Source: Chloroflexota bacterium (GTDB taxonomy: Bacteria > Chloroflexota > Anaerolineae > VGOG01). From it: DNA of 64,000 nt. Each line of letters starts with the position of its first letter. Position 1 is the first letter of the stretch. The notes beneath the pieces are model-generated. The model was given only the letters and a program-made list of their open reading frames with translations, searched no databases and was not told the DNA's origin. The stretch covers positions 1,595 to 65,594 of the forward strand of contig VGOG01000002.1 in NCBI GenBank assembly GCA_016875995.1. Direction: 5' to 3'. Below, piece after piece: positions 10,399 through 63,931 of this stretch. The position numbers were made by a program, and so were the translations under genes.

Positions 10399-10427
10399 CA
10401 GTAATCAGTAAGCTGTGATCAGTAATC
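10399..10427. repeat. 7-bp tandem array (CAGTAAT)
   Basis: CAGTAAT CAGTAAG CTGTGAT CAGTAAT. Confidence 0.6.
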
Positions 10428-10483
10428 TTTGCCACCCAAATTCGAAGTGTTGCATGTTGCACCTCCAAAGTTTGATTCTCGTA

Positions 10484-10518
10484 CAGACCCTGAGGTTCTC
10501 CAAGACCCTTAGGGTCTG
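10484..10518. repeat. REP-like palindrome containing the stop codon of the flavoprotein gene
   Basis: CAGACCCTGAGGTTCT-CCA-AGACCCTTAGGGTCTG. Confidence 0.7.
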
Positions 10519-11774
10519 GCCGCGGACCGGCCAGCCACCCAACCAGTGGAAAAGGCGGCTTGCAGATTGTAGCCGCCGGTGTCGGCGTCCACGTCCAGCA
10601 CCTCGCCGGCGAAGTAGAGACCCTCCACCAGGCGCGAAGCCATGGTACGCGGGTCAACTTCCCGCACGTCCACCCCGCCAGCGGTGATGATGGCCTCGGC
10701 GAAAGAGCGGTGCCCGGTCACCTCCAGGCGAAAGTCTTTCAGCCACGTCCGCAGCCACTGGCGTTCTTGGGATGTGATCTGGTGCGCCACTTTGTCCGCA
10801 GGGATGCCCATCAGGTCTATGCAGACCGGGATCAGCTTGCTGGGGAGCAACCCTTTGAGCAGGGTGCAAAACTGCTGCTTGCCGTGGGCGTCCAGGTCGC
10901 GGAGCAGTCGCGCGTCCAGCTTGCTCTCGTCGAGGGCTGGTTTGAGGTCAATGGACAGGATCACCCTCTGGCCCAGGCGCAGGGCGTCCACCACCTCCTT
11001 GCTCAGGGAGAGGATGATCGGCCCGGAGACGCCAAAGTGGGTGAAGAGCATCTCGCCGAAGGCCTCGGCCTGCTTTTTGCCATTTACCCACACCCGCACG
11101 GTCACGTTGCGCAGGCTCAGGCCCTGCAGCCTGGGGGCCACGTCGCCCGCCGTCTCCAGGGGAACCAGCGCTGGCCGAATGGGCACGATGGTATGCCCCA
11201 CCGCCTGGACCAGCCGATAGCCGTCCCCCGTTGACCCGGTGGCCGGGTAAGACGCCCCGCCCGTGGCCACGATCACCGCCTCAGCGCGATAGAAACCAGG
11301 TTTTTTGGGAAAAACCTGGTTTCTGGACACCTCCACCCCAACCACCCGCCCTTCCTCGACCAGCAACCGCTCCACTGGTGAGTGGGTGCGCAGGGTCACG
11401 CCGCGCTCGCCAACCCATTGCATCAACGCATCCACCACGTCCTGGGCCTGACCGCTGGCCGGGAAAACCCGTCCCCCTCGCTCGGTCACGGTGCGCACTC
11501 CCAGCCCTTCAAAAAACGCCACCAGGTCGGAGGTGAAGAACTGGGAAAAAGCCTGGCGAAGGAAACGACCGTTCGGCCCGAAGTGCGCGATAAACTCGGA
11601 CACGGGAGCCACGTTGGTCAGGTTGCAGCGCCCCTTGCCGGCGATGCGCAGCTTGCGCCCGGGGCGGTCCATCTTTTCCAGGAGCAGCGTTTCGGCGCCC
11701 ATTTGGGCGGCCTGCCCGGCAGCCATCAAGCCCGCTGCTCCTCCTCCGACCACGATCACCCGACGCCCTGTCAT
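10509..11774 (-). CDS. HI0933/BaiN family NAD(P)/FAD-dependent flavoprotein
   Basis: VVGGGAAG, GKGRCNLTN, ATGGASYPATGSTGDG, FTHFGVSGP, TGGYNLQAAFSTG; carries in-frame palindrome at 11291-11324. Confidence 0.92.
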   Translation of the reverse strand: MTGRRVIVVGGGAAGLMAAGQAAQMGAETLLLEKMDRPGRKLRIAGKGRCNLTNVAPVSEFIAHFGPNGRFLRQAFSQFFTSDLVAFFEGLGVRTVTERGGRVFPASGQAQDVVDALMQWVGERGVTLRTHSPVERLLVEEGRVVGVEVSRNQVFPKKPGFYRAEAVIVATGGASYPATGSTGDGYRLVQAVGHTIVPIRPALVPLETAGDVAPRLQGLSLRNVTVRVWVNGKKQAEAFGEMLFTHFGVSGPIILSLSKEVVDALRLGQRVILSIDLKPALDESKLDARLLRDLDAHGKQQFCTLLKGLLPSKLIPVCIDLMGIPADKVAHQITSQERQWLRTWLKDFRLEVTGHRSFAEAIITAGGVDVREVDPRTMASRLVEGLYFAGEVLDVDADTGGYNLQAAFSTGWVAGRSAARP

Positions 11775-11781
11775 ACATTCC

Positions 11782-12990
11782 CTATCCCCGCTTGTAGGCC
11801 ACCTGGCCGTCCACCAATACCAACTCGGCCACGGTGCGGTAGTCGAAGGGGTGTCCGCTGAACACGACAAGGTCGGCGTCCTTGCCCACCTCCAGGCTGC
11901 CCACCCGGTCGGCCACGCCGATGATCTCGGCGGGGTTGATGGTGATGGCTTTCAATGCCTCTTCTTCCGACATCCCCTCACGCACGGCCAGCGCGGCGTT
12001 GATGGTCAGGTATTTGACCGCCGACATCTCGTCGGTTTGGATGGCTATCTTGACGCCTGCTTTGGCCATCAGGCCGGGGTTCCTGGGCGTCATGTCCTTC
12101 AGCTCATACTTCTCGCGAGAGAAGAAGATTGGCCCGGCGGTGACGGGAATTCCCTTCTCGGCCAGGACGTCGCCGATTTTGTAGCCCTCGGTGGCGTGTT
12201 CCAGCGTCAGGTCCAGGTTGAACTCTTCGGCGATGCGAATTGCAGTGAGCATGTCGTCGGCGCGGTGGGCGTGGACGCGGGCCTTCATCTCGCGGCGCAG
12301 CACTTTGCCCAGAGCTTCCAATTGTAGATCGCGCTCCGGCTGTTTGGGCTCCTCCGCATCCTCGTCCTTCGCCTCGACCTTGGCCCGATAGTCAGCCAGG
12401 TCCGCTTCGTAGCGGCGCCACTTTTCCAGGTAGTTCTGGGCGTCCACCAGCGCGGTACGCAAGGTGGCCGCATTCCCCATCCGCGTGGAAGGCGCTTTCT
12501 TCTGCTCGCCGTAGACCCGCTTGGGATTCTCGCCCAGGGCCATTTTCATGCCCGCCGGCTCCAGCAGCACCATCTGCTCCACGCGCGGCTTGGGTACGGT
12601 CTTGAGGCACACCCACTGCCCGCCGATGAGGTTGCCGCTGCCGGGGCCGGTGAGCACCGTGGTCACGCCGGCGGCTACCAGTTCTTTGAATGCCGGGTCT
12701 TCGGGATGTACGGCGTCCAGCGCCCGCAGGTGCGGCGTGATGGGGTCGGTCATCTCGTTGCCGTCGGAGTGCTCCCAGCCGATGCCGTCGGGAAATAGCC
12801 CCACGTGGCAATGGGCGTCAATCAGGCCGGGCATCACCACCTTGCCCGTTGCGTCGTACACTTCAGCGCCCTCTGGGACTTCAACCTCCTCTCCCACAGC
12901 CACGATGCGCCCGTCCTCGACCAGCACCGTCCCGTGTTCCAACGTGCCCTGGGTGATGGTCATCACTTTGCCATTGGTAATGGCGATCAT
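11782..12990 (-). CDS. metal-dependent amidohydrolase
   Basis: PGLIDAHCH, KMALGENPKR, HAHRADD, GSLEVGKDADLV; start ATG 12990 after GAGGAGG. Confidence 0.9.
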   Translation of the reverse strand: MIAITNGKVMTITQGTLEHGTVLVEDGRIVAVGEEVEVPEGAEVYDATGKVVMPGLIDAHCHVGLFPDGIGWEHSDGNEMTDPITPHLRALDAVHPEDPAFKELVAAGVTTVLTGPGSGNLIGGQWVCLKTVPKPRVEQMVLLEPAGMKMALGENPKRVYGEQKKAPSTRMGNAATLRTALVDAQNYLEKWRRYEADLADYRAKVEAKDEDAEEPKQPERDLQLEALGKVLRREMKARVHAHRADDMLTAIRIAEEFNLDLTLEHATEGYKIGDVLAEKGIPVTAGPIFFSREKYELKDMTPRNPGLMAKAGVKIAIQTDEMSAVKYLTINAALAVREGMSEEEALKAITINPAEIIGVADRVGSLEVGKDADLVVFSGHPFDYRTVAELVLVDGQVAYKRG

Positions 12991-13020
12991 TTGATTATCC
13001 TCCTCGTTTTGTGAGTGTTG

Positions 13021-13053
13021 AGGTGCCAGGCACTTCCTAAGTGCCTGGCACCT
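13021..13053. repeat. REP-like palindrome
   Basis: AGGTGCCAGGCACTT-CCT-AAGTGCCTGGCACCT, perfect 15-bp arms. Confidence 0.75.
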
Positions 13054-13157
13054 TGAATTTGCGGTCTGGTTGTTTGATGACGTCTGTCCTACTGCGGCGG
13101 TATGTCGGCAACATTGGCTGGGCCAGGGAGGCTGATAACTGGTGTCGTATGGGTATC

Positions 13158-13529
13158 TCATGGGCCAGGCATCTCCATGCGAAAGCTGTGACGGACCAGA
13201 AGCCGCTCGGCGACGTCTTCGACCAGCGTTATCATCACAGGCGTACGCCCGAATTGCTGGCGTATGCGTTGGTGCAGTGCCTGGAAGTCGGAATCGTGAT
13301 CTACCACCTGGCCGTTGTGCATGGCGATGTATTGACCCAGGTACAGGGCCTTTATTTCGGCGTGTCGCTGACGGTAGATCTTACTTTCCTCGGAGATTTT
13401 GCGACGATCCAGTTCCCAAAGGTAACGACGGATGGCTTCGTTGAGTATTTCGCCCAAGTCGGCTTTGTGCTCCAGGGAGGCTTCTTTGACACGCTGATAC
13501 AATTCAGGTGCAACAGCTATCGTTGGCAT
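13158..13529 (-). CDS. RHH-like plus DUF5678-like small protein
   Basis: YLGQYIAMHNGQVVDHDSD motif; N-terminal ribbon-helix-helix-like segment; ATG 13529 after AGGAG. Confidence 0.7.
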   Translation of the reverse strand: MPTIAVAPELYQRVKEASLEHKADLGEILNEAIRRYLWELDRRKISEESKIYRQRHAEIKALYLGQYIAMHNGQVVDHDSDFQALHQRIRQQFGRTPVMITLVEDVAERLLVRHSFRMEMPGP

Positions 13530-13596
13530 ACTCCTACTCCTTTCTAGTAGTCCATCACATTGATTTTGATACTTGGGGCAACGGCCTTTCGGCAGC

Positions 13597-13655
13597 GGAG
13601 TCCTGAACTTGTTCGGGTTCATTGCGTGCCACACCCCCAACAAGTTGGGGACTCC
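13597..13655. repeat. REP-like palindrome
   Basis: GGAGTCCTGAACTTGTTCGGG...CCCCAACAAGTTGGGGACTCC. Confidence 0.65.
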
Positions 13656-13726
13656 GTCGCTTGGAAGTCGTAACTGCGAACTTATCACAATCAGCGTGAT
13701 GGGGTGCTAGTGCGTGGTCATCATTG

Positions 13727-16218: not shown

Positions 16219-16321
16219 CGTGATGCGTAATGCGTGAAACGTGACACGTTACGTGATGGTGACTCACGTTCCACGTCTTCACGTTTCACGTTTGACGTTT
16301 CACGTTTGACGTTTCACGCTT
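16219..16321. repeat. 7-bp inverted-tandem array (CGTGAAA then CACGTTT)
   Basis: About 5 forward units followed by about 8 reverse-complement units. Confidence 0.9.
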
Positions 16322-16371
16322 CGCCTTGCCCAATAGCTCAAAATGTGATACAATCCCTGATGGGAGGAGCC

Positions 16372-18673: not shown

Positions 18674-18728
18674 TCGATCTTCGATTGCCGATTGCCGATT
18701 TTCGATTGGGAAATCGAAAATCGGAAAT
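18674..18728. repeat. 7-bp inverted-tandem array (CGATTGC/CGATTTT then AAATCG)
   Basis: 5 forward and 2-3 reverse units; same unit family as 51068-51131. Confidence 0.85.
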
Positions 18729-18743
18729 TCTCTGGATAACCCC

Positions 18744-31335: not shown

Positions 31336-32409
<1,074 letters not shown>

Positions 32410-32494
32410 GCAAGTGGCAAGTAGCAAGTGGCAAGTAGCAAGTGGCAAGTGGCAGGCAGTAACCATCTGCTACTTGTTACCTGCTTACTTGCTA
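32410..32494. repeat. 7-bp inverted-tandem array (GCAAGTR then TACTTGC-like)
   Basis: 6 forward units directly after the dhaK stop, then about 4 degenerate reverse units. Confidence 0.9.
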
Positions 32495-39094: not shown

Positions 39095-39730
39095 ATGGAA
39101 GCTGGCATGGAGGGGAAGCGGCCCCAATTCCAAGAGGGGCTCGATGCCTTCGCTGCCCGTCACGAGCTGACGGACTGGGAGGGCTGGTTCAGCCCCTACG
39201 ACGCAGAGACATACGACCAGGTCTTGCAAAACATCGGCGAAGACGATGTCGTCATGGAGATCGGCGCCGGCGACCTGCGTCTGGCCCTGCGACTGGCGGA
39301 GCGGGCCCGAAGGGTTTACGCCGTGGAGGTCAATCCTCTCCTGGTCGGCGCGGCCCTGCAGGCCATCGGCTTTGACCTGCCACGCAACTTGCTGGTCGTC
39401 TGCGCCAACGCTCTGGACATCTCTTTTCCCAATGACATCACTGTAGCCGTGCTTCTCATGCGCCATTGCCAGCACTTTGGGCGATACGAGGACAAACTGC
39501 GGGCCGCTGGCTGCCGGCGGTTGCTGACCAACGCCCGCTGGAAAAGCGGGATGGAGAGCATTGACCTCACCCGTCCTGGTGTCCCCTTCGCTGAGGTGAG
39601 CGAGGGCTGGTACGCCTGCCGCTGTGGGGCGGTGGGCTACGTGGGTCGGGGCGAGCGGTCGGATGCACCACCCGTGGAGGTGATTGGCTGTCCCGCCTGC
39701 CAATCACGTTTTACGTTTGACGTTTCGTAA
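39095..39730 (+). CDS. SAM-dependent methyltransferase with Cys-rich C-terminus
   Basis: MEIGAGD, YAVEVNP; CRCG and CPAC pairs; start uncertain (39068/39095/39107). Confidence 0.75.
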   Translation: MEAGMEGKRPQFQEGLDAFAARHELTDWEGWFSPYDAETYDQVLQNIGEDDVVMEIGAGDLRLALRLAERARRVYAVEVNPLLVGAALQAIGFDLPRNLLVVCANALDISFPNDITVAVLLMRHCQHFGRYEDKLRAAGCRRLLTNARWKSGMESIDLTRPGVPFAEVSEGWYACRCGAVGYVGRGERSDAPPVEVIGCPACQSRFTFDVS

Positions 39731-40412: not shown

Positions 40413-42958
40413 GAATCGTCATCGTCGCCCACAGTGCGAAACTGGCCGAAGGCGTGAGAGACCTGGCCGAGTAGATGGGGCAGGGGCGGGTGGCCATCGC
40501 CGCCGCTGGCGGCCTGGACGATGCGACCATCGGCACCAACCTGGAGCGCATCCTGGAGGCCATCGAAGCCGTCTACCAACCGGCCGGGGTGCTGGTGCTG
40601 ATGGACCTGGGAAGCGCGGTGATGAGCACCGAGATGGCCGTCGGGATGTTGCCGCCCGACCAGCAGTCCATGGTGCTGCTGAGCGAAGCGCCGCTGGTGG
40701 AGGGGGCTATCGCCGCCACGGTGGAGGCCTCTATCGGCAAGTCCCTGGCCGAGGTTGACGCCGCAGCTCGCGCCGTGGTGCGCACACCCAAGGTCGCCGG
40801 AGCCACCCCCCTCACCGAGGCGGTGCCACGTCCTGAGCTGGTCGAAGGGCCTCCATCCAACGAGATCACCCTCAACATCGTCAACGAGGTCGGGCTGCAC
40901 GCCCGGCCCGCCGCCCTGTTCGTTCAGACCGCTGGCCGCTTCCAGTCGGCCATCACGGTGCGCAATCTGACCCGAGACACCGCTGCCGTTGATGCCAAGA
41001 GCATGTTCGGCGTGCTGAGCATCGGCGCCCAACTGAACCACCAGATCGCCGTCGCCGCCGAGGGGCCTGACGCAGACGAGGCCCTGGCGACCATCGGCCA
41101 GTTGGTGGAGAGTGGATTCGGAGAAATGGAGGGGGTCCCAATTCCAACGGTGGCTCCCGCGTCCCCTGCTATCTTGCCTCCCCGTCCCCTCGCTCCCCTG
41201 GCTCCTTTGCCCCCTTGCTCCTCTGCTCCTCTGCTCCCTTGCACCCTGACTGGCATCACCGCTTCGACCGGCATCGCCGTTGGGCCAGCGTACATCTACC
41301 GCCCGGAGGTCTTGACTGTCGAGCGCCGGACGGTGGATGACCCGGCGGCCGAGTGGTCCCACTTCACCCAGGCAGTCGAGCAGGCCAAGGCCGAGATCGG
41401 CGCCATCCGCTCCCAGGCCGCCGCCGAGGTGGGCAAGGCCGAGGCGGAGATCTTCACCGCTCACCAGTTGTTCCTGGAGGACCCCGCCCTGCTGGATCGG
41501 GTGCGGGGGCAGATCGAGGGAGAGAGGAGTAACGCTGAGGCAGCTCTGGCCGATGCGGTGGCAGGCTACGCCGAGCTCCTGCGGGGCATGGAGGGGGAGA
41601 TCTTCCGTCAGCGAGCGGCCGACGTCGAGGACGTGGGCCGGCGGGTGCTGCGCATCTTGCTGGGCATGGGTGAGACCTCCCTGGTCGAGCTGCCGAAGCC
41701 GGTGGTGGTAGTGGCTCACGACCTCACCCCCTCCGACACCGCCCAAATGGACAAAGAGCGTGCCCTGGGCTTTTGCACCGCCATTGGCGGCGAAACCTCC
41801 CACACCGCCATCCTGGCCCGCAGCCTGGGCCTGCCGGCGGTGGTCGGTCTGGGGGAGGGCGCGTTGAGCATTCCCGACGGGACACCCTTGATCATTGATG
41901 GTGACCAGGGCCTGGTGATCGTCAACCCGGATGAGAGCACCCTGGCTGATTACCGCGCCCGCCAGGAGGCGTTGCTGGCCCAGGAGGTGGCCGCCAGGCG
42001 CGCCGCTCAACGCCCCGCTCAGACCCTTGACGGGCAGCGGGTGGAGGTAGTGGCCAACATCGGCGACGTGAATTCGGCCAGGATAGCCCTGGAGTACGGG
42101 GCCGAGGGGGTGGGGCTGCTGCGCACTGAGTTCCTCTACCTGGATCGCGCCACCATGCCTGGCGAGGAGGAGCAGTACGCTGCCTATCGCGCCATCGCCG
42201 ACCTGATGGGGAAGCGTCCCCTCATCGTCCGCACTTTTGACATCGGGGGCGACAAGCAGTTGCCTTATCTCGACATCGGCGATGAGCTCAACCCTTTCCT
42301 GGGATGGCGGGCTATCCGGCTTTCCCTGGATCAGGTTGATCTCTTCCGAACGCAGCTCAGGGCCATCCTCCGGGCGGGCCACGACCGCAACGTCAAGATC
42401 ATGTTCCCCATGATCGCCGACGTGGGGGAGGTGCGTCGGGCCAGGGACGTCCTGGCCGAGGTCAGGGCCGAATTGGAAGCCGAGGGAGTTCCTTTTGCTT
42501 CCGGGGTTGAGGTGGGCATCATGGTGGAAGTGCCGGCGGCGGCCTTGGCGGCCGACGTACTGGCCCAAGAGGTGGACTTCTTCAGTATCGGCACCAACGA
42601 CTTGATCCAGTACACCATGGCCTGCGACCGCACCAACGAGAAGGTCGCTTATCTTTATCAGCCGTTGCACCCGGCCGTTTTGCGGTTGATCAAGCGGGTG
42701 ATCGAGGCCGCTCACGCGGCTGGCAAGTGGGTGGGCATGTGTGGGGAGATGGCTGGCCAGCCCGAGGCCATCCCCATCCTGTTGGGCCTGGGGCTGGACG
42801 AGTTCAGCATGAGCGCGGCGGCCATTCCCAGAGCCAAGGCGCTGATGGCGGCGATCACACTCGATAAGGCGCGAGAAATGGCTGCCGAGGCGCTCAACAT
42901 GTCCACCGCAGACCAGGTGCGAAGCTATGCCCAGGAGGTCATAAACTCGTTGAGTTGA
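40406..42958 (+). CDS. DhaM(EIIA)-HPr-enzyme I multiphosphoryl transfer fusion, interrupted by in-frame TAG at 40472-40474
   Basis: GTG 40406 reads MVGIVIVAHSAKLAEGVRDLAE*MGQ; then DLGSA (DhaM), GLHARPAA (HPr), TSHTAILAR, GLLRTEF, SIGTNDL, GMCGE (EI). Confidence 0.9.
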
Positions 42959-44680: not shown

Positions 44681-45252
44681 TCATTGCCGACGATGAATCC
44701 ATCATCCGCATGGACCTCAGGGAGATGTTGACTAGCCTGGGTTATCTGGTCATCGGCGAGGTGGGGGATGGCCGCAGTGCGGTGAATCTGGCTCGGGAAC
44801 TGAGGCCTGACGTGGTGATCATGGACATCAAGATGCCAGACATGGATGGCATTGACGCCGCCAAAATCCTGACCGAGGAGAGGATCGCCCCTGTCTTGCT
44901 GCTAACCGCCTACAGCCAACAAGAGCTCATCGAGCGGGCCAAGGAGGCAGGAGTGGTAGGCTACATCGTGAAGCCCTTCCGGGAGTCCGACTTGGCGCCA
45001 GCTATCGAGGTGGCAGTGGCCCGCTTTGCCGAGTTCCGTGCCCTGGAAAAAGAGGTGGGCGACCTCAAGCTGGCCTTAGAGACCAGGAAGCTGGTGGATC
45101 GGGCCAAAGGCATCTTGATGGATACCCAGGGCGTAACCGAGGCCGAGGCCTTCCGCAAGATCCAGAAGATGAGCATGAACACCCGTAAGCCCATGAAGGA
45201 GGTTGCGGAAGCGATCATTTTGGCTCACCAAGCATCAATAGCCAATATCTAA
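44662..45252 (+). CDS. ANTAR-domain response regulator, PdtaR/EutV-like
   Basis: IADDE, MDIKMP, KP; ANTAR RKLVDRAKGILM...EAEAF...SM. Confidence 0.95.
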   Translation: MERTRVIIADDESIIRMDLREMLTSLGYLVIGEVGDGRSAVNLARELRPDVVIMDIKMPDMDGIDAAKILTEERIAPVLLLTAYSQQELIERAKEAGVVGYIVKPFRESDLAPAIEVAVARFAEFRALEKEVGDLKLALETRKLVDRAKGILMDTQGVTEAEAFRKIQKMSMNTRKPMKEVAEAIILAHQASIANI

Positions 45253-45276
45253 TAGCCAATAACCAGCGAGGGGACG

Positions 45277-46020
45277 ATGAAAACCTCTGAACGAATCAGC
45301 ACTTGGATCGGGGAAAAGGTCGAGGAGGCAGGAGCCGAGGGCGTGGTGTTGGGGATCAGCGGCGGGGTTGATTCGGCGGTGGTGGCTGTCCTGGCCAAAA
45401 AGGGGTTGGGCGATGGGGTGTTGGGGTTGATCATGCCTTGCCACAGCGACCCGACCGACGTCGAGCACGCCCGACGCCTGGCTGCCGAGTTCGACATCCA
45501 GACCGAGTACGTGGACTTGACCCCTGTCTTCGACCGCCTTCTGGAGGCTCTGCCCCCTGGGGACAGGGTGGCGGCTGGCAATCTGAAAGCCCGTCTGCGG
45601 ATGGCCGTGTGGTACTACTTCGCCAACAGCCGCAATTACCTGGTTGCTGGCGCGGGGAATAAGAGTGAACTCAAAGCTGGTTATTTCACGAAGTTTGGCG
45701 ACGGCGGCGTTGACATCTTGCCCCTGGGTGACCTGCTTAAGACGCAGGTGCGGGAGCTAGCCCGCGAGCTGGGCATCCCTGAGGAGGTCATCGCCAAGCC
45801 CCCCAGCGCGGGCCTGTGGGAAGGGCAGACGGACGAGGGGGAGATGGGCATCACCTACGAGGAATTGGACAGGGTTCTCATAGCTATCGAGTCCGGTAAT
45901 ACCGCTGAGTGCAATCAGGAGGCTTTGGCCCGCGTGAGGGCCATGATGGCTGCCTCTCAGCACAAGAGGGATCCGATACCGATATGGAGCAAGGGAGCAG
46001 AGGAGCAGGGGGGCATTTGA
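45277..46020 (+). CDS. nadE: NH3-dependent NAD+ synthetase
   Basis: SGGVDSA, NLKARLRM, NKSE, FTKFGDG, PSAGLWEGQTDE. Confidence 0.95.
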   Translation: MKTSERISTWIGEKVEEAGAEGVVLGISGGVDSAVVAVLAKKGLGDGVLGLIMPCHSDPTDVEHARRLAAEFDIQTEYVDLTPVFDRLLEALPPGDRVAAGNLKARLRMAVWYYFANSRNYLVAGAGNKSELKAGYFTKFGDGGVDILPLGDLLKTQVRELARELGIPEEVIAKPPSAGLWEGQTDEGEMGITYEELDRVLIAIESGNTAECNQEALARVRAMMAASQHKRDPIPIWSKGAEEQGGI

Positions 46021-47456: not shown

Positions 47457-47531
47457 GTCAGTGATCAGGGATCAGTAAATCAGGGATCAGGAATCAGCTC
47501 CCCCGATTCCCTGATCACTGATTACCGATTA
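47457..47531. repeat. 7-bp inverted-tandem array (TCAGGGA-like then CTGATCA-like)
   Basis: About 6 forward and 4 reverse units between convergent stop codons. Confidence 0.85.
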
Positions 47532-47891
47532 CCCCTCAACAGAAGGCGGGAGTGTTTCAGTGAATTCCCTGCGCAAATACTGGACAGTGGCCCTGGTGTT
47601 TTCCTCGATGGCCAGAGCCAGGTAGATGGCTTCGCCGAGGGCGTAGATAAGCAAGAAGTAGAAGCCCGCCCCCAGCACGAGCCCCAGGGCGCCGAAGATC
47701 CCCCCAGCGATCCCCATTAGAGGGGTATAGGGTCGTGGAAAAATCCTGGGTGTCCTTAGCACCTGCGTTTCCCCCCAGATGCCAGCAGCCAGAACCCCCA
47801 GGGCAGCCAGGAGGCCGATGACCAGGACGATCCAGGCCAAAACCTTGTAGATAGTGCCGATGAGCCGCAGAACCGTGAACTTTTGCTTCAT
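47529..47891 (-). CDS. small membrane protein
   Basis: Two TM segments, C-terminal LAIEENTR. Confidence 0.8.
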   Translation of the reverse strand: MKQKFTVLRLIGTIYKVLAWIVLVIGLLAALGVLAAGIWGETQVLRTPRIFPRPYTPLMGIAGGIFGALGLVLGAGFYFLLIYALGEAIYLALAIEENTRATVQYLRREFTETLPPSVEG

Positions 47892-48760: not shown

Positions 48761-50326
48761 ATGAAGGGAGTGATGGTTTGGGTTAGCCGTCGTTGGGCGG
48801 TGTTGAGCCTGGCGTTGCTGGTGCTCGTAGGAGCAGCTTTTCGACTTGCCCCTATCGGCGCGAACCGCTTCCATCAGGATGAGGCCCTTTACAGCTTCTG
48901 GGCCCTGCAAGTAGCCAGCGGGCGCGACCCGATCTTGAACCACTCCCCGGTTGATAAACCCCCCCTTTACATCTATACCCTGGCCCTCTGCTTCAAACTC
49001 TTTGGCCCCTCGGAGGTGGCCGCTCGTCTGCCCGGCGAGGTGGGCAGCGTGGCCAGTATCGCTCTTGTCTACTATTTGGCTTCTCGACTCTACGGACGAT
49101 CTGTGGCTTTGCTGGCGGCAGTCCTGATGGCGCTCTCGCCCTTCAATGTCCTCTTTGCTCCCACGGCCTTCACCGATCCGCTGATGGTGGCCTGGATTTT
49201 GGCCGCCCTCTGTTTTGCGGCCAGCGGAAGTTTAGGGTGGTCTGGGCTCATGCTGGGGTTGGCGGCGGCCACCAAGCAGCAGGGCCTTCTCTTTGCGCCT
49301 CTGATCATCATTATCGGCACCCGTTTCCTCACCTCATCTTTCTTGCTCCCCTGCTCCTCTGCTCCCCTGCACCTCCGCACCTCCACTCTGTTGAGGGAGG
49401 GGCTCTTTTTCACCCTGGGCTTCCTGGCCGTGATGGCTCCCGTGGCCTGGTGGGATTCCCTGCGCTGGCGGTTGCAGCCCAGCTATCTCGAGCAGAGCCT
49501 CATCAGCTACGGCGGCCTGACCCTGGTAGACCCGGCTCAGTTGGTTGAGCGACTTGGAGACTGGGCTGAGATCCTGCACTACATAACCGCCTCACCTGGG
49601 CTCAATATCCTGTTGCCGGGTGGCTTGCCTTGCCTCATCCTCTACGATCTCGCCCCCCCTCTTTCCCCCCCAAATTGGGGGGGAGGAAGGGGGGGAGAGC
49701 CAGCGACTTTCTTCGATGTCGTCTTGTCGACTTTCGTCACTCTTTTCCTGCTGGGCCATTGGGTGTTCAGCTTCAATGTCTGGGATCGCTATCTCCTGGG
49801 CCTGGTTCCTCTTTTGCTGATCCTGCTGGCTAGGGTCTTATGGCTGGCGAGCGGGGCATTGACCCATCTCCTATCGCTTCGACTGCTATCCTTTCGAGCG
49901 TTCTTGGCTGTCGTCTTGTTGGTAGCCACATTAGCCGGGCCAGCCTTGGTTGCGGCGCGGAGCGGATACCCCATCGGTGGAGATCACGGGGCCTACGACG
50001 GCATCGAAGCCGTAGCCGACTATTTCCGAGATCGTGTGCCCGCTGGGTCTATCCTCTATCATCATTGGCTGGGCTGGCATTACTCCTTTTACATGTTCGA
50101 CTTCCCCCTGGTTCTCCGCTGGTATCCTTCGCCTGAGGAGCTGGCTGAGGATGCAAGCCAGGTGGATAACGCCTGGCGCTATATCGTCTTCCCCAATGGG
50201 AAGTTGACCGCAGAGGTAAAGGATGCTCTGGCCGAGGCAGGGTTGACGCTCCGCCGTGTCTATTGGACTTACCGACGTGACGGCAGCATCTCCTTTACTG
50301 TTTACCGCATCGAGGCTCGGAAGTGA
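48761..50326 (+). CDS. GT-C membrane glycosyltransferase (ArnT/PMT family)
   Basis: HQDEALY, DKPPL, ATKQ, RY motifs; many TM segments; two in-frame repeat inserts. Confidence 0.85.
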   Translation: MKGVMVWVSRRWAVLSLALLVLVGAAFRLAPIGANRFHQDEALYSFWALQVASGRDPILNHSPVDKPPLYIYTLALCFKLFGPSEVAARLPGEVGSVASIALVYYLASRLYGRSVALLAAVLMALSPFNVLFAPTAFTDPLMVAWILAALCFAASGSLGWSGLMLGLAAATKQQGLLFAPLIIIIGTRFLTSSFLLPCSSAPLHLRTSTLLREGLFFTLGFLAVMAPVAWWDSLRWRLQPSYLEQSLISYGGLTLVDPAQLVERLGDWAEILHYITASPGLNILLPGGLPCLILYDLAPPLSPPNWGGGRGGEPATFFDVVLSTFVTLFLLGHWVFSFNVWDRYLLGLVPLLLILLARVLWLASGALTHLLSLRLLSFRAFLAVVLLVATLAGPALVAARSGYPIGGDHGAYDGIEAVADYFRDRVPAGSILYHHWLGWHYSFYMFDFPLVLRWYPSPEELAEDASQVDNAWRYIVFPNGKLTAEVKDALAEAGLTLRRVYWTYRRDGSISFTVYRIEARK

Positions 50327-53300
50327 GAGATTTTACGTTTCACGTTTCACGTTTCACGTTTCGAGTTGCTAGAGACCTCTGTGCTTTGGCCACTTTGCTC
50401 GCCTTAACACTGGCCTTCTTCTGGAAGATCATCTTCACCAATCTCATCCTGGTGGGGTTGGACATCTTCACCTATTTTTATCCCTACAAGGCTTACGCTG
50501 CTGAAATCATACGCCAGGGCCGCCTGCCCCTGTGGAATCCGTATCTCTTCATGGGCGTGCCGTTTCTGGCCAATGCCCAGACAGCACTTTTTTATCCCCT
50601 GAACTTTCCCCTGTACTGGCTGCCTGTGCCCAGGATGGTGAGCTATTCCATCGTGTTGCACGTCTTCCTGGCCGGCCTTTTTGCTTACCTCTATGCTCGC
50701 CTCTCGCTGGGATTGGGAAGATGGGGGGCCTGGCTGGCGGCAGTGGTTTTCGCCTTCAGCGGTTTCGTCGGTGCCCAGGTGGAGCACGTCAATCAGTTGA
50801 ACTGCTCCGTCTGGCTGCCGTTGCTGTTCTTGCTCTTCGATTTGGCTTGTGGAAAACCCTGGCGAGGCATACGCCCCTCCCTCCCAGGGAGGGGCAGGGG
50901 GAGGGTGGATCCCACCCCCACCCCAACCCTCCCCCTGCGAGGGGGAGGGAGTGAACAATCAGAGTGGCGGCATGTTTTGCTGGCCGGCTTGGTGGTGGGA
51001 CTCCAGTTCACGGCTGGCCACACGCAGTCGTCGTACATCTCCTTGTTTGCTCTAGGGGTCTACGCAACGATTTTCGATTTTCGATTGGCGATTTCTGAAT
51101 CGAAAATCGGCAATCGGCAATCGAAAATCGGGTTGTTGGTTTACCTCTTGATTGTAATCATCGGCCTGGCTCTGGCGGCGGTGCAGTTGTTGCCGACCCT
51201 GGAACTCTCGCGGCTCTCGGTGCGAAGTGGCGGGTTATCGTACCGTGAGGCGGCCTCTTTCTCTCTCAAGCCGCGCTTGTTGCTCCTTTCCCTGCTGCCG
51301 ACCTTCGGCGGCGAGGAGGTCTTCAGCGAGTACGTCGCCTATCTGGGCATCGTTGCTCTGGCCCTGGCCCTGGTCGGCGCCCTGTTCCAGCGACGCCATC
51401 CCGCTCGCCCTTTCCTCGTCTTCCTGACTGCCCTGGGCCTGTTCCTGGGCCTGGGTGGCTACAATCCCGTTTACTTCGTCCTGTACAAGCTGGTGCCAGG
51501 CTTTGGCCTCTTCCGAGCGCCGGCTCGATGGTTGTATCTATACACCTTCGGCGGGGCCATGCTGGCGGGGCTGGGGGCGGAGTTTCTAGGCTATCCCCTG
51601 TCTGCCAAAGCAGAGATGGTCGGTTGGCCCCCCCTCTTTCCCCCCCAATTTGGGGGGGAGGAAGGGGGGAGGCTCTGGCCCTGGGTTCGTCGTCGCCTGC
51701 TGATCGCCGTCGGCATATTAGCCGCCCCCGTGCTTCTCCTCTCCCCTTTCCTTGACTTCCCCACCCGGCCCACGCTCTTGGCTTGGCTGGTGCTGGCTTC
51801 ACTGGCCTCGGCCTTGCTGTGGTTGTGCTGCCGGATGCTTCCGTCGGGGGTAGGGACTCCCCCCTCCCTCGAAGGGAGGGGCAGGGGGAGGGTGGATCCG
51901 CAATATTGCTCAGGGCAGGCTCAGGTGGCACGCCCAGTTTGTTGCCTGGTGATCGCCCTGATCGTCGTCGGGGAACTCTTCGCCGCCAGCCGCGGCCTGG
52001 CCTACAACCATCCCACCGCCCCGGAAGCTTACTCCTCTCTGCGCACCGCCCCGGCTCACCTCCTGGCTGTTGGGCAGCCAACGGATCGCGTCCTCAGCAT
52101 CTCAGGCCTGACTTTCGACCCCGGCGACCTGGGAGAGATACGGCAGATTTTCGAGGATCAACTGACTCCCCACGCCATCTACGACTACGTGGTGGTCACT
52201 AAGCTGAAGGAGATCATGGCTCCCAACCTGCCCCTGGTTTACAAAATACCCAGCGTGGATGGCTACGACGGCGGAGTGCTCCCCCTCAAGCGCTACGTCG
52301 AACTACAACGCCTGTTTCTGTCCGAGCCTTCGCCCGATGGCCGCTTGCGGGAGCAGTTGAAGGAGATACCATCATCACGGATTCTGAACCTGCTTGGCGT
52401 CAGGTACATTATCATAGACAAGGTTTATGATATCTGGGTGGATGACGTCTACTACGACCTGAGTCACGAGGCCGTTCTAGGCCCTGGGGTGGCTTCTCAG
52501 GTGGACGTGACGGAACTGCCGGACTTCGCCGCTACCTCGTTGGGCCTGGTATCCCACCTGGAGGGGGCGCATGATCTGCCCAACGGGGTGCCCGTGGCTC
52601 AGGTGACGATCACCGACGAGCGGGGAGCGATCCAAGGCCATCTCCTGCGGGCTGGCATCGAGACAGCGGAGGGCGAATATGCTGGGGCTCGGCATGACCA
52701 GGCCAGGGTCTGCCGTCACTGGCCCAGCAACCTTCAGGGAAATGACTACCTGGCTCGCCTGGAGCTTGGCGAGGCCCTGATCCCACGACAGATTCTGATC
52801 GAGTATCTTGCTCCGGTTGGGCGGCTGCACCTGCGGGGTCTCAGCCTGATTGACGATAGGACAGACACTTTTGTGCCCGTGGTTGTTTCCACCGGGGGGC
52901 GCTTGCGGTTGGTGCACAGCGGCGACGTGAAGATCTACGAGAATCTGGACAGCCTGCCGCGGGCCTTCGTCGTTCATCGAGCGCGAGTCCTGGACGATGA
53001 AGCGGCCATTGCGGCCATGAAAGACCTCTCCTTCCGACCTGAGGAGGAGGTCATCCTGGCGCCGGGCGGGGAGGCAATGAACGGGCAACCAGGTGGAGGC
53101 CAGGTAGAGGTCCTGTCTTATGAGCCAGAGCGCGTCGTGATTTCCGCTAATCTGGCTGCGGAGGGCTATCTGGTCCTGACCGATGCCTATTATCCTGGCT
53201 GGCACGCGCTGACCGACGGTCTGGAGATGCCCATCCATCGGGCGAACCTTCTCTTCCGGGCGTTGTACCTGCCGGCAGGTCAGCATAGAGTAGAATTCAT

Positions 53301-56144: not shown

Positions 56145-57484
56145 AACCTTCCACCATCGCCATTGATGGGACAGTTGCCTCAGGGAAGAGCACCATTGGG
56201 GCGTTGTTGGCTGAGCGCCTGGGTTACACCTACTTGGATACAGGCGCCATGTACCGAGCTGTCACCTGGGTGGCTCTTGAGCAAGGGATTAACATCGCCG
56301 ACGAGGAGGCCATCACCGCCCTGGCCGAAAGCGTCGTCATCAACATCAGCCGGCCCACGGTGGACGATGGACGGCAGTACACCGTCTACGCCGATGGGGA
56401 AGACGTAACCTGGGAGATCCGGCGGCCGGAGGTGGACGCCAACGTCTCGCCTGTCTCCGCCTACCCCGGCGTGCGCAGGGCTCTCACCGAGCAGCAGCGG
56501 CGCATGGGGCGGCGGGGCCGCATCGTGATGGTGGGGCGGGACATCGGCACGGTGGTTCTCCCTGAGGCGGATCTCAAAATCTACCTCGATGCTACCGTTG
56601 AGGAGAGAGCTCACCGTCGTCATCGGGAGATTCTGGACCGGGGAGAGGAAGCTGATTACGAGCAGGTTCTGGCCTCCATGCGCCGGCGGGACAGGATTGA
56701 TAGCCAGCGAGAGGCGGCTCCCCTTCGCCCGGCCGGCGACGCGGTCATCATTGATACCACGGGGCTGAGCATCGCTGAGGTGTTGGCCAAGGTGGAGGAG
56801 TTAGCCCAAAGTCCAAAATCCAAAGTCCAAAGTTCAAACGGGAGAGGACGAGCGGTATTCCGACGCCTTGCTCGTTCTCTTCTGCGGTTGCTTTTCAGGC
56901 TTTTGACGCGCCTGGAGGTCAGGGGCTCGGAGAACGTGCCTGCGGGCGGGCCGCTGCTGGTAGCCTTTAATCACCTGGCACATCTTGATGCCCCCTTGGT
57001 GCTAGCTTTTCTGCCCCGGCCTGCAGAGGGCATAGCCCTGGATGATCTCTACCGCGTTCCCATCACGGGGCAGTTGCTGCGGCTCTACGGCGCTATCCCC
57101 GTGCACCGTGACCAGTTCGACCGCCAGGTCATCCGGCGAGCTCAGCAGGTGCTGGCCGAGGGCAAGGTGCTGGCCCTGGCCCCTGAGGCCCGGATGAGCC
57201 TGAGCGGTGCTCTGGAGCGAGCGCGGCAGGGTGTTGCTTACTTGTCACTACGCAGCAACGCGCCGATCTTGCCCGTCGCCCTAACCGGCACGGAGAAGGT
57301 CTACGCTGACTGGAAGCGGTTGCGGCGCCCGCGGCTGACCCTTACCTTCGGCCAGCCTATCACCCCACCGCCTCCGGCCAGTACGTCCCAGGCGCGGCGT
57401 CAACAGGTGGCCGACCTCACCGCTGAGATCATGCGTCGCATCGCTGACATGCTGCCGCCGGAGTATCGAGGAGCATATAGCTGA
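56138..57484 (+). CDS. cmk: cytidylate kinase fused to lysophospholipid acyltransferase (Cmk-PlsC)
   Basis: IAIDG..ASGKST, DTGAMYRA, GRDIGT, RRD..D; then NHLAHLD (HX4D) and PEAR; linker is a 7-bp array. Confidence 0.92.
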   Translation: MSKPSTIAIDGTVASGKSTIGALLAERLGYTYLDTGAMYRAVTWVALEQGINIADEEAITALAESVVINISRPTVDDGRQYTVYADGEDVTWEIRRPEVDANVSPVSAYPGVRRALTEQQRRMGRRGRIVMVGRDIGTVVLPEADLKIYLDATVEERAHRRHREILDRGEEADYEQVLASMRRRDRIDSQREAAPLRPAGDAVIIDTTGLSIAEVLAKVEELAQSPKSKVQSSNGRGRAVFRRLARSLLRLLFRLLTRLEVRGSENVPAGGPLLVAFNHLAHLDAPLVLAFLPRPAEGIALDDLYRVPITGQLLRLYGAIPVHRDQFDRQVIRRAQQVLAEGKVLALAPEARMSLSGALERARQGVAYLSLRSNAPILPVALTGTEKVYADWKRLRRPRLTLTFGQPITPPPPASTSQARRQQVADLTAEIMRRIADMLPPEYRGAYS

Positions 57485-57493
57485 AGGGGGTAG

Positions 57494-58255
57494 ATGATGC
57501 GCCGAGAGGATTTTGCAACAGGGCAGGAGTTAGCCGACCATATCATCAGCCTCGAACGAGATTACACAGCTCGAATCTTCCACGTGCTTTACAGCAATGC
57601 TGGCAACCTCCAAGCTTGGTACAACGAGGCTAACAAGGTGACTGAGGCCTGGGCTGGCAAGATGGTCATCAGCCCACGAGAGCCATCGGCGCCTTGGGAG
57701 CAGGTAGGGGAAATCGTAATCACCGGGCTCCTGAACCGCAGCTTTCCGGAATGGTTTCCCACTGGCCTTCCTATCGGCTCAGAGACGCGTCTGAGTTCGC
57801 CCGAGGCGGTGATCCATATTGACGTCAAAACCCACAAAGAGGGGGATCCTGATCTCGACAGAACGCAAGATGTCCGACCGGAGCAAATCAGCAGCGATGA
57901 GCAGGAAAGCTATGTAGAAGACGAGCGAGGGCAGCTTGGGGATTGCTCACCCAAATTGCCCCCGTACTACGTATTCGGCCCCAACTTGCTCAAAGTGACC
58001 ATCACTGCTTTTGTTATTTGTGTCTATCAGTTCGATGAGTCCAGTGCCTATCAGTATCTGACCCGTGTACAATTATTTACCGTACCGAATGGTGTCCTCC
58101 GTGCAGTTCACGATTATCGGGATGTATTTCGGGCCGGAAAAGACGGACGTGCTGGTCATCGCTACCGAGTCAATCTTCCGGCGCTGACGGCCCACGAATC
58201 GTGGCGGTGGCGGGAGATCCGCTACGAGGCCCAGGGGTTTGTGGTCACTCGGTGA
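57494..58255 (+). CDS. putative type II restriction endonuclease, BglI-like PD-(D/E)xK
   Basis: VGE...PIGSE...AVIHIDVKT...VPNG...AGK pattern recalled from the BglI-like family; convergent with an MTase. Confidence 0.6.
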   Translation: MMRREDFATGQELADHIISLERDYTARIFHVLYSNAGNLQAWYNEANKVTEAWAGKMVISPREPSAPWEQVGEIVITGLLNRSFPEWFPTGLPIGSETRLSSPEAVIHIDVKTHKEGDPDLDRTQDVRPEQISSDEQESYVEDERGQLGDCSPKLPPYYVFGPNLLKVTITAFVICVYQFDESSAYQYLTRVQLFTVPNGVLRAVHDYRDVFRAGKDGRAGHRYRVNLPALTAHESWRWREIRYEAQGFVVTR

Positions 58256-58261
58256 CTGACC

Positions 58262-61007: not shown

Positions 61008-62362
61008 TCACGCAGGTACATTCAGGGAGCATCGCGGCGGAGCTGGGCCTGCGGCCCGACGATGTGCTCCTCTCCATCAACGGCCATCTCCTGCGCGACG
61101 TGATTGATTACCGCTTCTACGGAGCTGAGGAGGAGCTGGAGTTGGTCGTGGAGTGGGACGGGGAGCGGATGGTCTACCAGGTGGAGCGGGACTACGGCCA
61201 GGAATTGGGCCTCCAGTTCGCCGCGCCGACCTTCGATGGCCTGCGCCTGTGCAACAATCGCTGCGAGTTCTGCTTCTTCGAGGGACTGCCGCCGGGGATG
61301 CGCCGCTCTCTCTACATAAAAGACGACGATTATCGCTATTCCTTCCTCTTTGGCAATTACATAACTCTAACCAACCTCACCGAGGACGACTGGGATCGCC
61401 TGGCCGAGCAGCGCCTCAGCCCCCTCTACGTCTCCGTCCACGCCACCGACCTGGCCTTGCGTCGCCGCATCCTGGGCAATCCCGTCGCCCCCGACGTAAC
61501 CGAGCAGTTGGAGCGGCTGGGGAGTCTGGGTATCCAGATTCACGCCCAGATCGTCCTCATCCCTGGCCTCAACGATGTCGAGCAGTTCAACTGCTCGACA
61601 TCGCATCTGGCCCGCACCGTAGCCGACCTGGCCGCCCTCTATCCGACGGTGCAGTCTATCGCCGTCGTCCCCCTGGGCCTGACCAGGTACCATCGCTGCC
61701 CTTTTCGCCTCTATACCCCTGAGGAGGCGGGGCCGATCGTCGCTCAGATCTCGGCCTGGCAGCAGGAGTACCGACGTCGGCATGGCCTCAATCTGGTTTA
61801 TGCCTCCGATGAGTGGTATCTGCTGGCTGGCCTGGAGGTGCCTGCGGCCGAAGAGTACGATGGCTTTCCTCAACTGGAGAATGGGGTGGGGTTGACGAGG
61901 ATGCTCCTGGATGAGAGGGTACAGGTCCCAGGTCGCAGGTCGCAGGTCACAGGTCGCAGGTCGCAGGTCGCAGGGCGCAAGTCGCAAGTTGTGAAGTTCA
62001 CCCTGGTTTGCGGGACGTTGATTGCACCGCTGCTGGAAAAGTTAGCTGAAGAATGGGCCAGGTTGATGGGAGTGGAGGTCGAGGTCGTGCCGGCGGAGAA
62101 TCGCTTCTTCGGGCCGACGGTGACTGTCTCTGGGCTACTCACGGGGCGGGACGTGATCGAGGCTTTGCGGGGGCGTGACCTGGGCCAGGCCGTGTTCCTC
62201 CCACGGGCCATGTTCGACGCCGCAGGGGAGCTGACTCTCGACGATATGAGTCCAGCGGCGATAGGGGAGAGGCTGGGGGTCAGGGTCGAGGTGGCGGGGA
62301 CGATGGGGGAGGTAGTCGAGTTTTGTGTGTTTGGTGAAGGTGATTTGGAGGTGAATCTATGA
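60989..62362 (+). CDS. PDZ plus DUF512 Fe-S (radical-SAM-like) protein
   Basis: PDZ-like N-terminus, CNNRCEFC, KDDDYR.SF, ITLTN, QLENGVG, VSGLLTG.D; two in-frame repeat inserts. Confidence 0.9.
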   Translation: MARGGVITQVHSGSIAAELGLRPDDVLLSINGHLLRDVIDYRFYGAEEELELVVEWDGERMVYQVERDYGQELGLQFAAPTFDGLRLCNNRCEFCFFEGLPPGMRRSLYIKDDDYRYSFLFGNYITLTNLTEDDWDRLAEQRLSPLYVSVHATDLALRRRILGNPVAPDVTEQLERLGSLGIQIHAQIVLIPGLNDVEQFNCSTSHLARTVADLAALYPTVQSIAVVPLGLTRYHRCPFRLYTPEEAGPIVAQISAWQQEYRRRHGLNLVYASDEWYLLAGLEVPAAEEYDGFPQLENGVGLTRMLLDERVQVPGRRSQVTGRRSQVAGRKSQVVKFTLVCGTLIAPLLEKLAEEWARLMGVEVEVVPAENRFFGPTVTVSGLLTGRDVIEALRGRDLGQAVFLPRAMFDAAGELTLDDMSPAAIGERLGVRVEVAGTMGEVVEFCVFGEGDLEVNL

Positions 62363-63537: not shown

Positions 63538-63645
63538 CGACGTAGCCAATTTCAGTACATCACAATTACGAAGCAGAGCGGGCTCCCATGCCCGCGTTTC
63601 GGCGGCGTGGGAGCCGCCTCTGTTGGCAGATCGTGACTACTGAAT

Positions 63646-63674
63646 TTGCACAATTACGGGAGTTAGTGTATAAT
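63646..63674 (+). promoter_or_regulatory. sigma70 promoter of AOR
   Basis: TTGCAC-17-TATAAT. Confidence 0.75.
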
Positions 63675-63701
63675 AATTTTGAAACATTGGTATAAGGGGC
63701 T

Positions 63702-63795
63702 ATCTCCGAGCTATGGCTGCTACGGGGAGACCTATGCATCATAGCCGGTAGGGTACAGCGGGAAACGGCTGTGCCTCCCAGTGTGGAAAGGAGAT
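63702..63795 (+). ncRNA. Moco/Tuco riboswitch
   Basis: CTCCGAG...AGGGT...GGAAAC...GCCTCCC...GGAAAGGAG hallmark; P1 ATCTCC/GGAGAT; upstream of AOR. Confidence 0.88.
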
Positions 63796-63838
63796 CCCGC
63801 GTCTGGCAGACAAGGCCAGAGCAAGATCTCCTTTTTTT
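63790..63838 (+). terminator. riboswitch expression-platform terminator
   Basis: GGAGATC..TCTGGC-loop-GCCAGA..GATCTCC then TTTTTTT. Confidence 0.8.
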
Positions 63839-63871
63839 CGTCAGGGCCGGAAAGGAGGTGGTGTGGAGCCA

Positions 63872-63931
63872 AGGTATTCAAAGTTTGGAGTTTAGAGTTT
63901 GAAGTTTAAAATTTGAAGGAGGTATTCAAAG
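63872..63931. repeat. 7-bp array (TTTGAAG) flanked by 12-bp direct repeat
   Basis: AGGTATTCAAAG at 63872-63883 and 63920-63931 around TTTGGAG TTTAGAG TTTGAAG TTTAAAA TTTGAAG. Confidence 0.85.

Follow-up and report, generated by a model that had tools for sequence, protein, structure and literature searches.

A stretch of 64,000 nt on contig VGOG01000002.1 (assembly GCA_016875995.1) of a Chloroflexota bacterium, here called the window, contains many short tandem arrays built of 7- or 8-base units. We find that these arrays belong to a type of bacterial repeat that is already known, though not explained, and that is now observed in a new lineage. Most likely, the about 1,170 arrays of this genome form one population that is typical of this family of Anaerolineae, and most likely, repeat material of the type found in the window also makes up the paired arms of small cassettes, each with a PF05635 four-helix-bundle gene, which are built like the intervening sequences (IVS) of 23S rRNA that bear an open reading frame (ORF). 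As to their origin, we favor, with confidence only slightly better than even, a seeding of arrays by such cassettes or their hairpins and a long subsequent evolution at the site. The source of the window is a metagenome-assembled genome (MAG) of the Anaerolineae (G000; 4.29 Mb, 414 contigs, GC 0.596, 95% complete), and the gene content of the window is that of ordinary housekeeping and transport genes.

Repeat arrays in the window and in the genome

The initial annotation of the window had reported at least 12 period-7 arrays. Tandem Repeats Finder (TRF) and direct reading recovered all 12 with the units it had given, and TRF also found octamer arrays beyond the 12, at 41162-41246, 45986-46015 and 49344-49384. 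The arrays of the window are the following.

10399..10427: CAGTAAT, 4.1 copies, single-arm array between the stop of an HI0933-like gene (10509, minus strand) and the start of a TPR gene (10377, minus strand); TRF and reading.
16219..16322: hairpin pair, (CGTGAWR)n followed by (CACGTTT)n, within the spacer that separates an arsA-like gene from the divergent fmt; fold -43.8 kcal/mol, z -4.3.
18674..18735: hairpin pair, CGATTGC followed by GAAATCG, flanked by a stop at 18662 and an amidase start at 18744; fold -20.6 kcal/mol, z -1.95.
32409..32493: hairpin pair, (GGCAAGT)x6.6 followed by (ACTTGCT)n, located between the stop of dhaK and the start of dhaL; fold -41.1 kcal/mol, z -4.2.
39704..39725: CACGTTT, 2.9 copies, single arm upstream of a DJ-1/PfpI gene; TRF and reading.
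41162..41246, plus strand: octamer TCCCCTGC, 10.5 copies, in-frame linker between the HPr and enzyme-I domains of a phosphotransferase system (PTS) fusion protein; TRF, with Pfam domains on either side in one ORF.
45236..45265: CAATAGC, 4.3 copies, between the pdtaR stop and the nadE start; TRF, reading and 10 related loci.
45986..46015: octamer GGAGCAGG, 3.8 copies, forming the C-terminal tail and the stop of nadE; TRF.
47458..47533: hairpin pair, (TCAGGGA)n then (TCCCTGA)n, directly 3' of the glnA stop; fold -31.0 kcal/mol, z -4.8.
49344..49384, plus strand: octamer TGCTCCCC array within a PMT_2 glycosyltransferase ORF; TRF.
50331..50362: TTTCACG, 4.6 copies, at a stop/start junction; TRF and reading.
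51068..51130, plus strand: hairpin pair, (CGATTTT)n followed by (AAAATCG)n, in frame and read through as part of a loop in a YfhO-like membrane-protein ORF; fold -30.9 kcal/mol, z -6.3.
56806..56838, plus strand: CCAAAGT, 4.7 copies, in place of the ATGA stop/start overlap of cmk and plsC, giving an in-frame fusion.
61922..61986, plus strand: CAGGTCG, 9.3 copies, in frame within a DUF512 radical-SAM gene, encoding QV(A/T)GRRS repeats.
63882..63918: AGTTTRR, 5 copies, between a molybdenum cofactor (Moco) riboswitch aptamer (63692-63809) and the Shine-Dalgarno (SD) sequence and start codon at 63932.

The annotated placement of most arrays at stop/start junctions held for 9 of the 12 loci, which lie at a gene junction or in a 5' leader. 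It did not hold for the arrays at 61922 and 51068, which are inside coding sequence (the former within the DUF512 domain itself), or for the array at 56806, which lies inside a fused ORF where a stop/start junction formerly was. The Moco/tungsten riboswitch aptamer upstream of the last array scores 70.8 bits, and since this array sits after the aptamer and runs straight into the SD sequence and the start codon, it occupies the place of the expression platform. As annotated, five of the 12 loci (16219, 18674, 32409, 47458 and 51068) flip orientation midway, and each of the five folds as a hairpin, with energies from -20.6 to -43.8 kcal/mol and z scores from -1.95 to -6.3 against dinucleotide shuffles. 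Hairpins of this kind were not formed by the four single-arm arrays of the window that were folded.

The period spectrum of the whole assembly, a check that the annotation had proposed, gave 709 arrays of period 7 and 300 arrays of period 8 at a TRF score of at least 40, versus 2, 13, 32 and 37 arrays of the neighboring periods 5, 6, 9 and 10. A 3rd-order Markov simulation of equal size produced one period-7 array and no period-8 array. Judged by the genome counts against this control, the excess is real and very large, and it spans two periods rather than one. Because period 8 behaves alike, the proposal of a mechanism specific to period 7 had to be given up. By canonical unit, the 709 heptamer arrays form 127 families and the 300 octamer arrays 81. 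The commonest heptamer families are AAACGTG (75 arrays), AAGGGAC (51) and AATATCC (46), and AAACGTG is also the unit family of the window hairpin at 16219. The copy number per array has its mode at 4 and its maximum at 24.

When merged at a score of at least 36, the set comprised 1,172 arrays, which make up 1.07% of the genome at one per 3.7 kb. We placed them relative to our own crude gene calls (3,824 ORFs, 88% coding), and found that 608 arrays (~52%) were intergenic or straddled a gene end versus 187 (16%) expected at random, and that 380 were inside called ORFs versus 789 expected. The count of 380 is an upper bound, since stop-free arrays let ORFs run on. Arrays were enriched between co-directional and convergent genes, with 84% of the single arrays between co-directional genes, and were somewhat depleted at divergent junctions (5.5% of single arrays versus 7.4% of junctions). 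Adjacent arrays with the same unit formed 182 inverted versus 29 direct pairs, and the gaps between inverted partners were bimodal: 157 were 30 nt or shorter, and 14 were 301-700 nt long. The sharp period preference, the number of heptamer families, the surplus of inverted pairs and the junction enrichment all agree with the earlier view that these are not ordinary chance microsatellites.

Chance and assembly artefact were ruled out by the Markov control, by arrays present at matching sites in independent MAGs and by spanning contigs. Contigs assembled from 4 of 4 public runs cross the arrays at 56806 and 61922 gap-free and with no indel, although rare variants are lost from such contigs. Breaks do occur in the Logan contigs of all four runs, at 50331-50362 and 51098-51130, and one joint that 'goes back 48' (61989>61942, run X6) was seen on a single contig and is too weak to read. 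The idea that arrays cause the contig breaks was also rejected, as an array lies within 100 nt of 23 of the 828 contig ends, versus ~29 expected.

The closest glnA loci in public genomes belong to Anaerolineae/Chloroflexota MAGs. In near-relative loci (~90% GlnA identity) the period-7 arrays reach a density of up to 2.7 per 10 kb, and none was found in the Bacillota loci fetched by the same glnA query. At the 3' end of glnA, hairpins of one unit family occur in the window and in locus L003, an octamer array occurs in L002 and L006, and no array occurs in L001, L007 and L009.

The five window hairpins, far more stable than their shuffles, would fit arrays that are kept for a function of their own, either as RNA hairpins (termination, processing or stability) or as G-quadruplexes, with the period reflecting that function, but 69% of all arrays are non-folding single arms, and no U-tract follows any of the hairpins read. 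The junction preferences given above point the same way as the hairpins, as does the copy-number peak at four units, which is likewise described in the accessible text of PMC4692102. The TTTCACG array at 50331 is almost unchanged (5 units) in L002 and L012, whereas the glnA junction bears a hairpin, an octamer array or nothing among near relatives, and arrays occur inside coding loops too. Only 308 of the 1,172 arrays (26%) have GGG or CCC in the unit, and on this count we rejected the G-quadruplex as a general explanation. Overall, we regard a function of their own as an improbable reason for the arrays, and one that may additionally be true alongside seeding.

PF05635 cassettes and their arms

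The initial annotation had referred to similar arrays flanking small mobile four-helix-bundle genes and had noted that no such gene is in the window. Indeed, the window has no PF05635 match at E <= 0.01, and no rRNA was found in it. In the whole genome PF05635 has 12 matches, 10 of them above the family cut-off, and the link to such genes holds: 7/8-base arrays flank 8 of the 11 PF05635 loci examined, and the 301-700 nt class of gaps between inverted partners includes PF05635 genes. All cassettes that we read sit between or inside protein-coding genes. The nearest one (C2:69393-69957, with the PF05635 match at 69583-69843) lies 3.8 kb beyond the window end and has the arms (TGCGTAG)x9 upstream and (ATACGCA)x7.7 downstream. 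The units of resident cassette arms are also frequent as gene-less arrays (AATACGC, 34; AAATCAGC, 21; AGCAGGGG, 45). Several four-helix-bundle genes of this genome are damaged, one by a stop codon, one by a frameshift and one by a small insertion.

The association extends to the relatives. When the best PF05635 gene of each of 20 Anaerolineae genomes was inspected, arrays of period 7 or 8 were found on both sides in 17, on one side in 2, and a 10-mer array only in 1. The complementary arms are inverted 7/8-base arrays both in G000 and in the cassettes of 17 of the 20 relatives. Cassettes differ in the layout of their arms, which may be A-gene-B, A-gene-A-B, B-A-gene-A or A-gene-A. Where two four-helix-bundle genes have 70-89% identity and unrelated flanks, they share the arm-unit family in 4 of 4 cases, and pairs at 63-68% identity differ in it in 2 of 2. 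This co-variation of protein and unit, as read from sequence, suggests specific recognition. Cassettes are also inherited across genera together with their arms, as seen in sets of three and of two genomes whose flanks are homologous.

We then asked how arrays and genes co-occur in 40 other Anaerolineae genomes, each searched for PF05635 and scanned for arrays over 14-40 kb; some of the sampled contigs were known from gene hits, and the stretches were taken away from those hits. Arrays were found in 0 of 8 PF05635-free genomes (270 kb sampled in all) and in 18 of 32 PF05635-positive genomes (Fisher p = 0.004 for the 40 genomes, and 0.02 for the 27 that represent separate families). The densities of genes and of arrays are correlated (Spearman rho 0.64). 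Three other gene families that the annotation had proposed for co-occurrence tests were compared with the arrays: neither of the two Y1_Tnp genes in the genome is within 300 nt of an array, one of five GIY-YIG genes has one adjacent array, and one of two DUF559 genes is flanked, by G-rich hairpin repeats and not by 7/8-base arrays.

Several cassette loci have features of their own. At C2:69500-71440 (L086, L212) the four-helix-bundle ORF lacks its own stop and reads via the downstream arm into a GlcD-like gene, making one open frame of 645 codons, and the ATG that relatives have for the GlcD-like gene is absent. According to a reading of the translation rather than an alignment, an NAD-dependent epimerase-like gene at C33:13860-15400 (L081, L083, L090) is split into four colinear pieces by two cassettes and an octamer hairpin that is empty, and some of the coding sequence between these pieces seems to be gone. 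In C162 (L088, 1863-3194) the gene upstream of the cassette has an in-frame run of ~7 KSANL repeats, the KSANL-encoding octamer being the cassette-arm octamer, and the C-terminus of this gene is also read from the arm. A sequence search of PDB with the four-helix-bundle protein of C162 gave no match at E <= 0.01. The weak PF05635 match on C309 is Avd, located 3' of a reverse transcriptase, and no 7/8-base arrays are there; the region C309:2300-3550 (L091) is a diversity-generating retroelement with the C-terminus of the reverse transcriptase, the Avd-like gene and an Asn-codon-rich repeat in an FGE-sulfatase-like frame.

Alleles at orthologous sites and the origin of the arrays

Comparison of orthologous loci, also proposed by the annotation, revealed empty, array-only, cassette-remnant and full-cassette alleles. 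The aminotransferase/GlcD-like junction has a full cassette in G000, a gene-less AAACGTG hairpin in G004 and no array in G003, G005 and G010. In G007 it has three TGCGTAG units, the SD region and the first four-helix-bundle codons, followed by the downstream gene. By its sequence the G007 allele is evidently a cassette remnant, so that at least one solo array is a decayed cassette.

At cmk/plsC, the two genes abut with no array in 8 genomes, and a CCAAAGT array is present in G000, G009, G012 and G003, where it stands in place of 9 nt, so that both the stop and the start are gone and the two genes form an in-frame fusion. No template for this array exists in the empty allele, and G012 with the array and G005 with the empty allele are placed in one genus. 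No target-site duplication was found at the cmk/plsC array, and a comparison of 23 loci of the CCAAAGT family found no conserved flanks or ends shared by the arrays. Elements like MITEs (miniature inverted-repeat transposable elements) or repetitive extragenic palindromes (REP), moved by a conventional transposase such as a REP-associated tyrosine transposase (RAYT/Y1), would also be dispersed, often palindromic and intergenic, and the genome does have its two Y1_Tnp matches. Such movement is contradicted by the absent shared ends, by the absent target-site duplication with 9 nt replaced at cmk/plsC, and by the lack of an array within 300 nt of either Y1_Tnp gene; we rejected it and consider it very improbable.

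Other arrays are old. In the DUF512 loop a 7-periodic sequence is found at one place in 13 of 13 genomes of the family, clear in 11 and degenerate in 2, with the unit series TTTCGGG -> CAGGTTT -> CAGGTCA -> CAGGTCG in 4, 7 or 9 copies that are always in frame; the frame of the array is kept across 14 of 14 genomes. Likewise, at the pdtaR/nadE junction 10 loci have between 2 and 8 copies of a CAGTRAT/CAATAGC unit, which drifts and provides the stop codon. Sequence comparison thus places both arrays as sites kept across genera while unit and copy number drift. In the YfhO-like loop, where the window has the hairpin at 51068, L012 and L013 carry unrelated inserts of 216 and 225 nt.

Such in-place change of copy number and unit at old sites is also what would be expected if the arrays were primary. 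According to this explanation, a bias of host replication or repair lets 7-8-base duplications expand by slippage, and cassettes merely land in arrays that already exist, for example through homologous recombination of same-unit arrays. The lack of conserved flanks among the 23 same-unit arrays agrees with it, while the CCAAAGT array at cmk/plsC, without a template in the empty allele, does not. Some cassettes have direct arms (A-gene-A, A-gene-A-B), as excision and re-integration of a circle would need, but arm units vary together with the four-helix-bundle protein across unrelated contexts. Arrays exceed cassettes by ~100 to 1, and the unit at the aminotransferase/GlcD-like junction resembles native codons of array-free relatives; on the other hand, 0 of 8 sampled PF05635-free genomes had an array, and we know of no slippage process that favors units of 7-8 bases. 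We therefore regard primary arrays as unlikely, though as the strongest competitor of seeding.

We favor the seeding of arrays by cassettes or their hairpins because the arrays and the cassette arms belong to a single population, at least one solo array derives from a cassette by decay, arrays have newly appeared at sites with no template in the empty allele, and the arrays behave as microsatellites afterwards. Several observations weigh against this explanation and keep our confidence only a little above even. There are ~1,170 arrays versus only ~10 cassettes, and the families AAACGTG, AAGGGAC and AATATCC (172 arrays) have no cognate cassette in an assembly that is 95% complete. Single arms make up ~69% of the arrays, and the hairpin loops of the window are a few bases long and contain no sign of a former gene. 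For cargo loss there is only one documented locus, that of the G007 remnant. The histories of the DUF512 and pdtaR arrays need nothing beyond slippage. The last codons of array-free alleles at the aminotransferase/GlcD-like junction resemble array units, and this resemblance could reflect relics or local templating rather than import. Finally, the co-occurrence rests on 14-40 kb per genome and on kin that are not independent, and 14 of the 32 PF05635-positive genomes had no array in the sample.

If arrays are seeded in this way, their history most likely has four steps. An array, with or without cargo, would be laid down at a permissive site such as the junction of two genes, a linker between domains or a surface loop, in an event that the alleles indicate to be non-homologous and to replace a few bases. 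Cargo would next be deleted so that hairpins or single arms remain, for which the alleles give one instance. The array would then persist as a locus-specific microsatellite that gains and loses whole units, as seen at two loci, and since units homogenise in this process, the period would be kept while the sequence drifts. Selection would retain only frame-preserving versions in genes, and at junctions the arrays may often supply stop codons, SD-like purine runs or new C-termini. In RNA, paired arms would be hairpins for processing, termination or stability; each four-helix-bundle protein would recognise its own repeat unit; and direct or inverted arms would permit recombination-based movement between arrays of the same unit. 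The initial annotation had described the arrays as products or scars of one generating mechanism. This stands insofar as the arrays form one genome-wide population, and it fits the seeding at most, because several arrays are old at their sites and have changed by unit drift and copy number.

More tentatively, we propose that the 7/8-base repeats of bacteria could be the footprint of a widespread mobile unit without a transposase, in which a four-helix-bundle protein and its specifically recognised arms travel together, decay to gene-less hairpins or single arms, move or flip by recombination between same-unit arrays, and remodel host genes. We hold this wider proposal to be doubtful at present. 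If it is true, the remodelling of the host by the mobile unit would include here the cmk-plsC fusion, the new C-termini and the in-frame peptide repeats in enzymes. The arrays also alter proteins directly, by fusing genes and by adding repeat peptides in frame, a point of importance for annotation and for the origin of new linkers and tails. This family of genomes provides a clean series of empty, array, remnant and full-cassette alleles at single orthologous sites. The co-variation of PF05635, a family with no assigned function, with the adjoining units is measurable. With the allele series and this co-variation in hand, the hypothesis of a protein binding its own repeats becomes testable.

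Other repeats and comparison with known systems

The genome contains repeats of other kinds. An element of ~24 nt with the core TTCGACAAGCTCAGGACAGG has 46 genome copies at 3 or fewer mismatches, many on the 24.5-kb contig C33. Some copies are inside coding sequence, for example beside the P-loop of ABC ATPase paralogues and within a four-helix-bundle gene, and a weak copy lies at window 40827-40846, in the EIIA/HPr linker of the PTS gene. In L096 and L125, arrays are interrupted by inserts related to this element. Within the ETF-alpha ORF, at window 36529-36581, there is a G-rich repeat of 26 nt (TRF score 92), and G/C-rich hairpin repeats of similar look flank the DUF559 gene at C235:5000-5717; these form a second repeat class, distinct from the 7/8-base arrays. 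At window 57494-60181, the gene of a BglI-like restriction endonuclease adjoins an N6-adenine DNA methylase gene on the opposite strand, and from their sequences the two are a probable restriction-modification pair.

An excess of heptamer repeats has been noted since 2007 in many bacteria and, reportedly, since 1990 in cyanobacteria, with no origin or function given. Our literature search, in which subscription journals were outside coverage, did not turn up any paper that treats heptamer repeats in Chloroflexota or any that links PF05635 to such repeats. The arrays had been put forward as an undescribed system, but the accessible text of Rehm et al. (2015, PMC4692102) already describes heptamers in excess, inverted pairs in convergent orientation, arrays that favor about four units, and their location between genes. 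According to that text, the heptamer simple sequence repeats (SSRs) are GGGAATC in Xanthomonas and GGGGA(C/T)T in Nostoc, a 2007 survey had found a heptamer excess in many genomes, and G-quadruplex DNA or RNA is proposed for the GGGNATC repeats. As far as that text describes them, the arrays of our genome resemble these SSRs in having tandem 7-nt units that number from 2 to about 25, most often near 4, in occurring at hundreds of sites and as tens of convergent inverted pairs in each genome, and in being over-represented outside genes and between aligned ORFs, with few between divergent ones. The local GGGATCA family (window 47458) is even close to GGGNATC. Unlike the SSRs of Xanthomonas and Nostoc, the arrays here have no single consensus (127 heptamer and 81 octamer families), octamers are equally typical, many arrays are intragenic and in frame, and the host is a member of the Chloroflexota; unlike the GGGNATC type, G-tracts are possible in only 26% of them. 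The accessible text of PMC4692102 draws no link to a protein-coding cassette.

The short tandemly repeated repetitive (STRR) heptanucleotides of heterocystous cyanobacteria were reportedly first described in 1990. Three such heptanucleotides occur in Calothrix PCC 7601 (cited in the accessible text of Rehm et al., PMC4692102), and STRR sequences have served as a fingerprinting target in published work, to the extent that its accessible parts describe it. The arrays here are like STRR in that several heptamer units occur per genome, in tandem, dispersed and mostly intergenic. They are unlike STRR in having far more unit families, octamers, allele series and an association with cassettes, and in their non-cyanobacterial host. 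A cyanobacterial origin (STRR proper) was rejected, as the cyanobacterial octamer HIP1 is rare in the genome (61 copies) and the relatives are Anaerolineae.

REP elements, bacterial interspersed mosaic elements (BIME) and MITEs are likewise short, abundant and often palindromic intergenic repeats; unlike REP/BIME with RAYT and unlike MITEs, the arrays here have no conserved ends, target-site duplication or adjacent transposase, and their internal structure is that of a microsatellite. The four-helix-bundle genes share a PF05635 match with Avd, the accessory protein of diversity-generating retroelements, in which the match is weak, but the array-flanked genes have no neighboring reverse transcriptase, and the Avd locus on C309 has no 7/8-base arrays. 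IVS are characteristically inserted in a helix of the 23S rRNA and excised by RNase III. Those that bear an ORF encode an S23p/PF05635 protein, for example in Coxiella burnetii (PMC4990558, in its accessible text). Unlike these IVS, the window holds gene-less arms only, and the cassettes of G000 are in protein-gene contexts and have arms made of tandem 7/8-base units. Like the IVS, the cassettes are selfish-looking inserts of ~0.4-0.6 kb in which a small PF05635 gene lies within complementary arms that could form a long stem.

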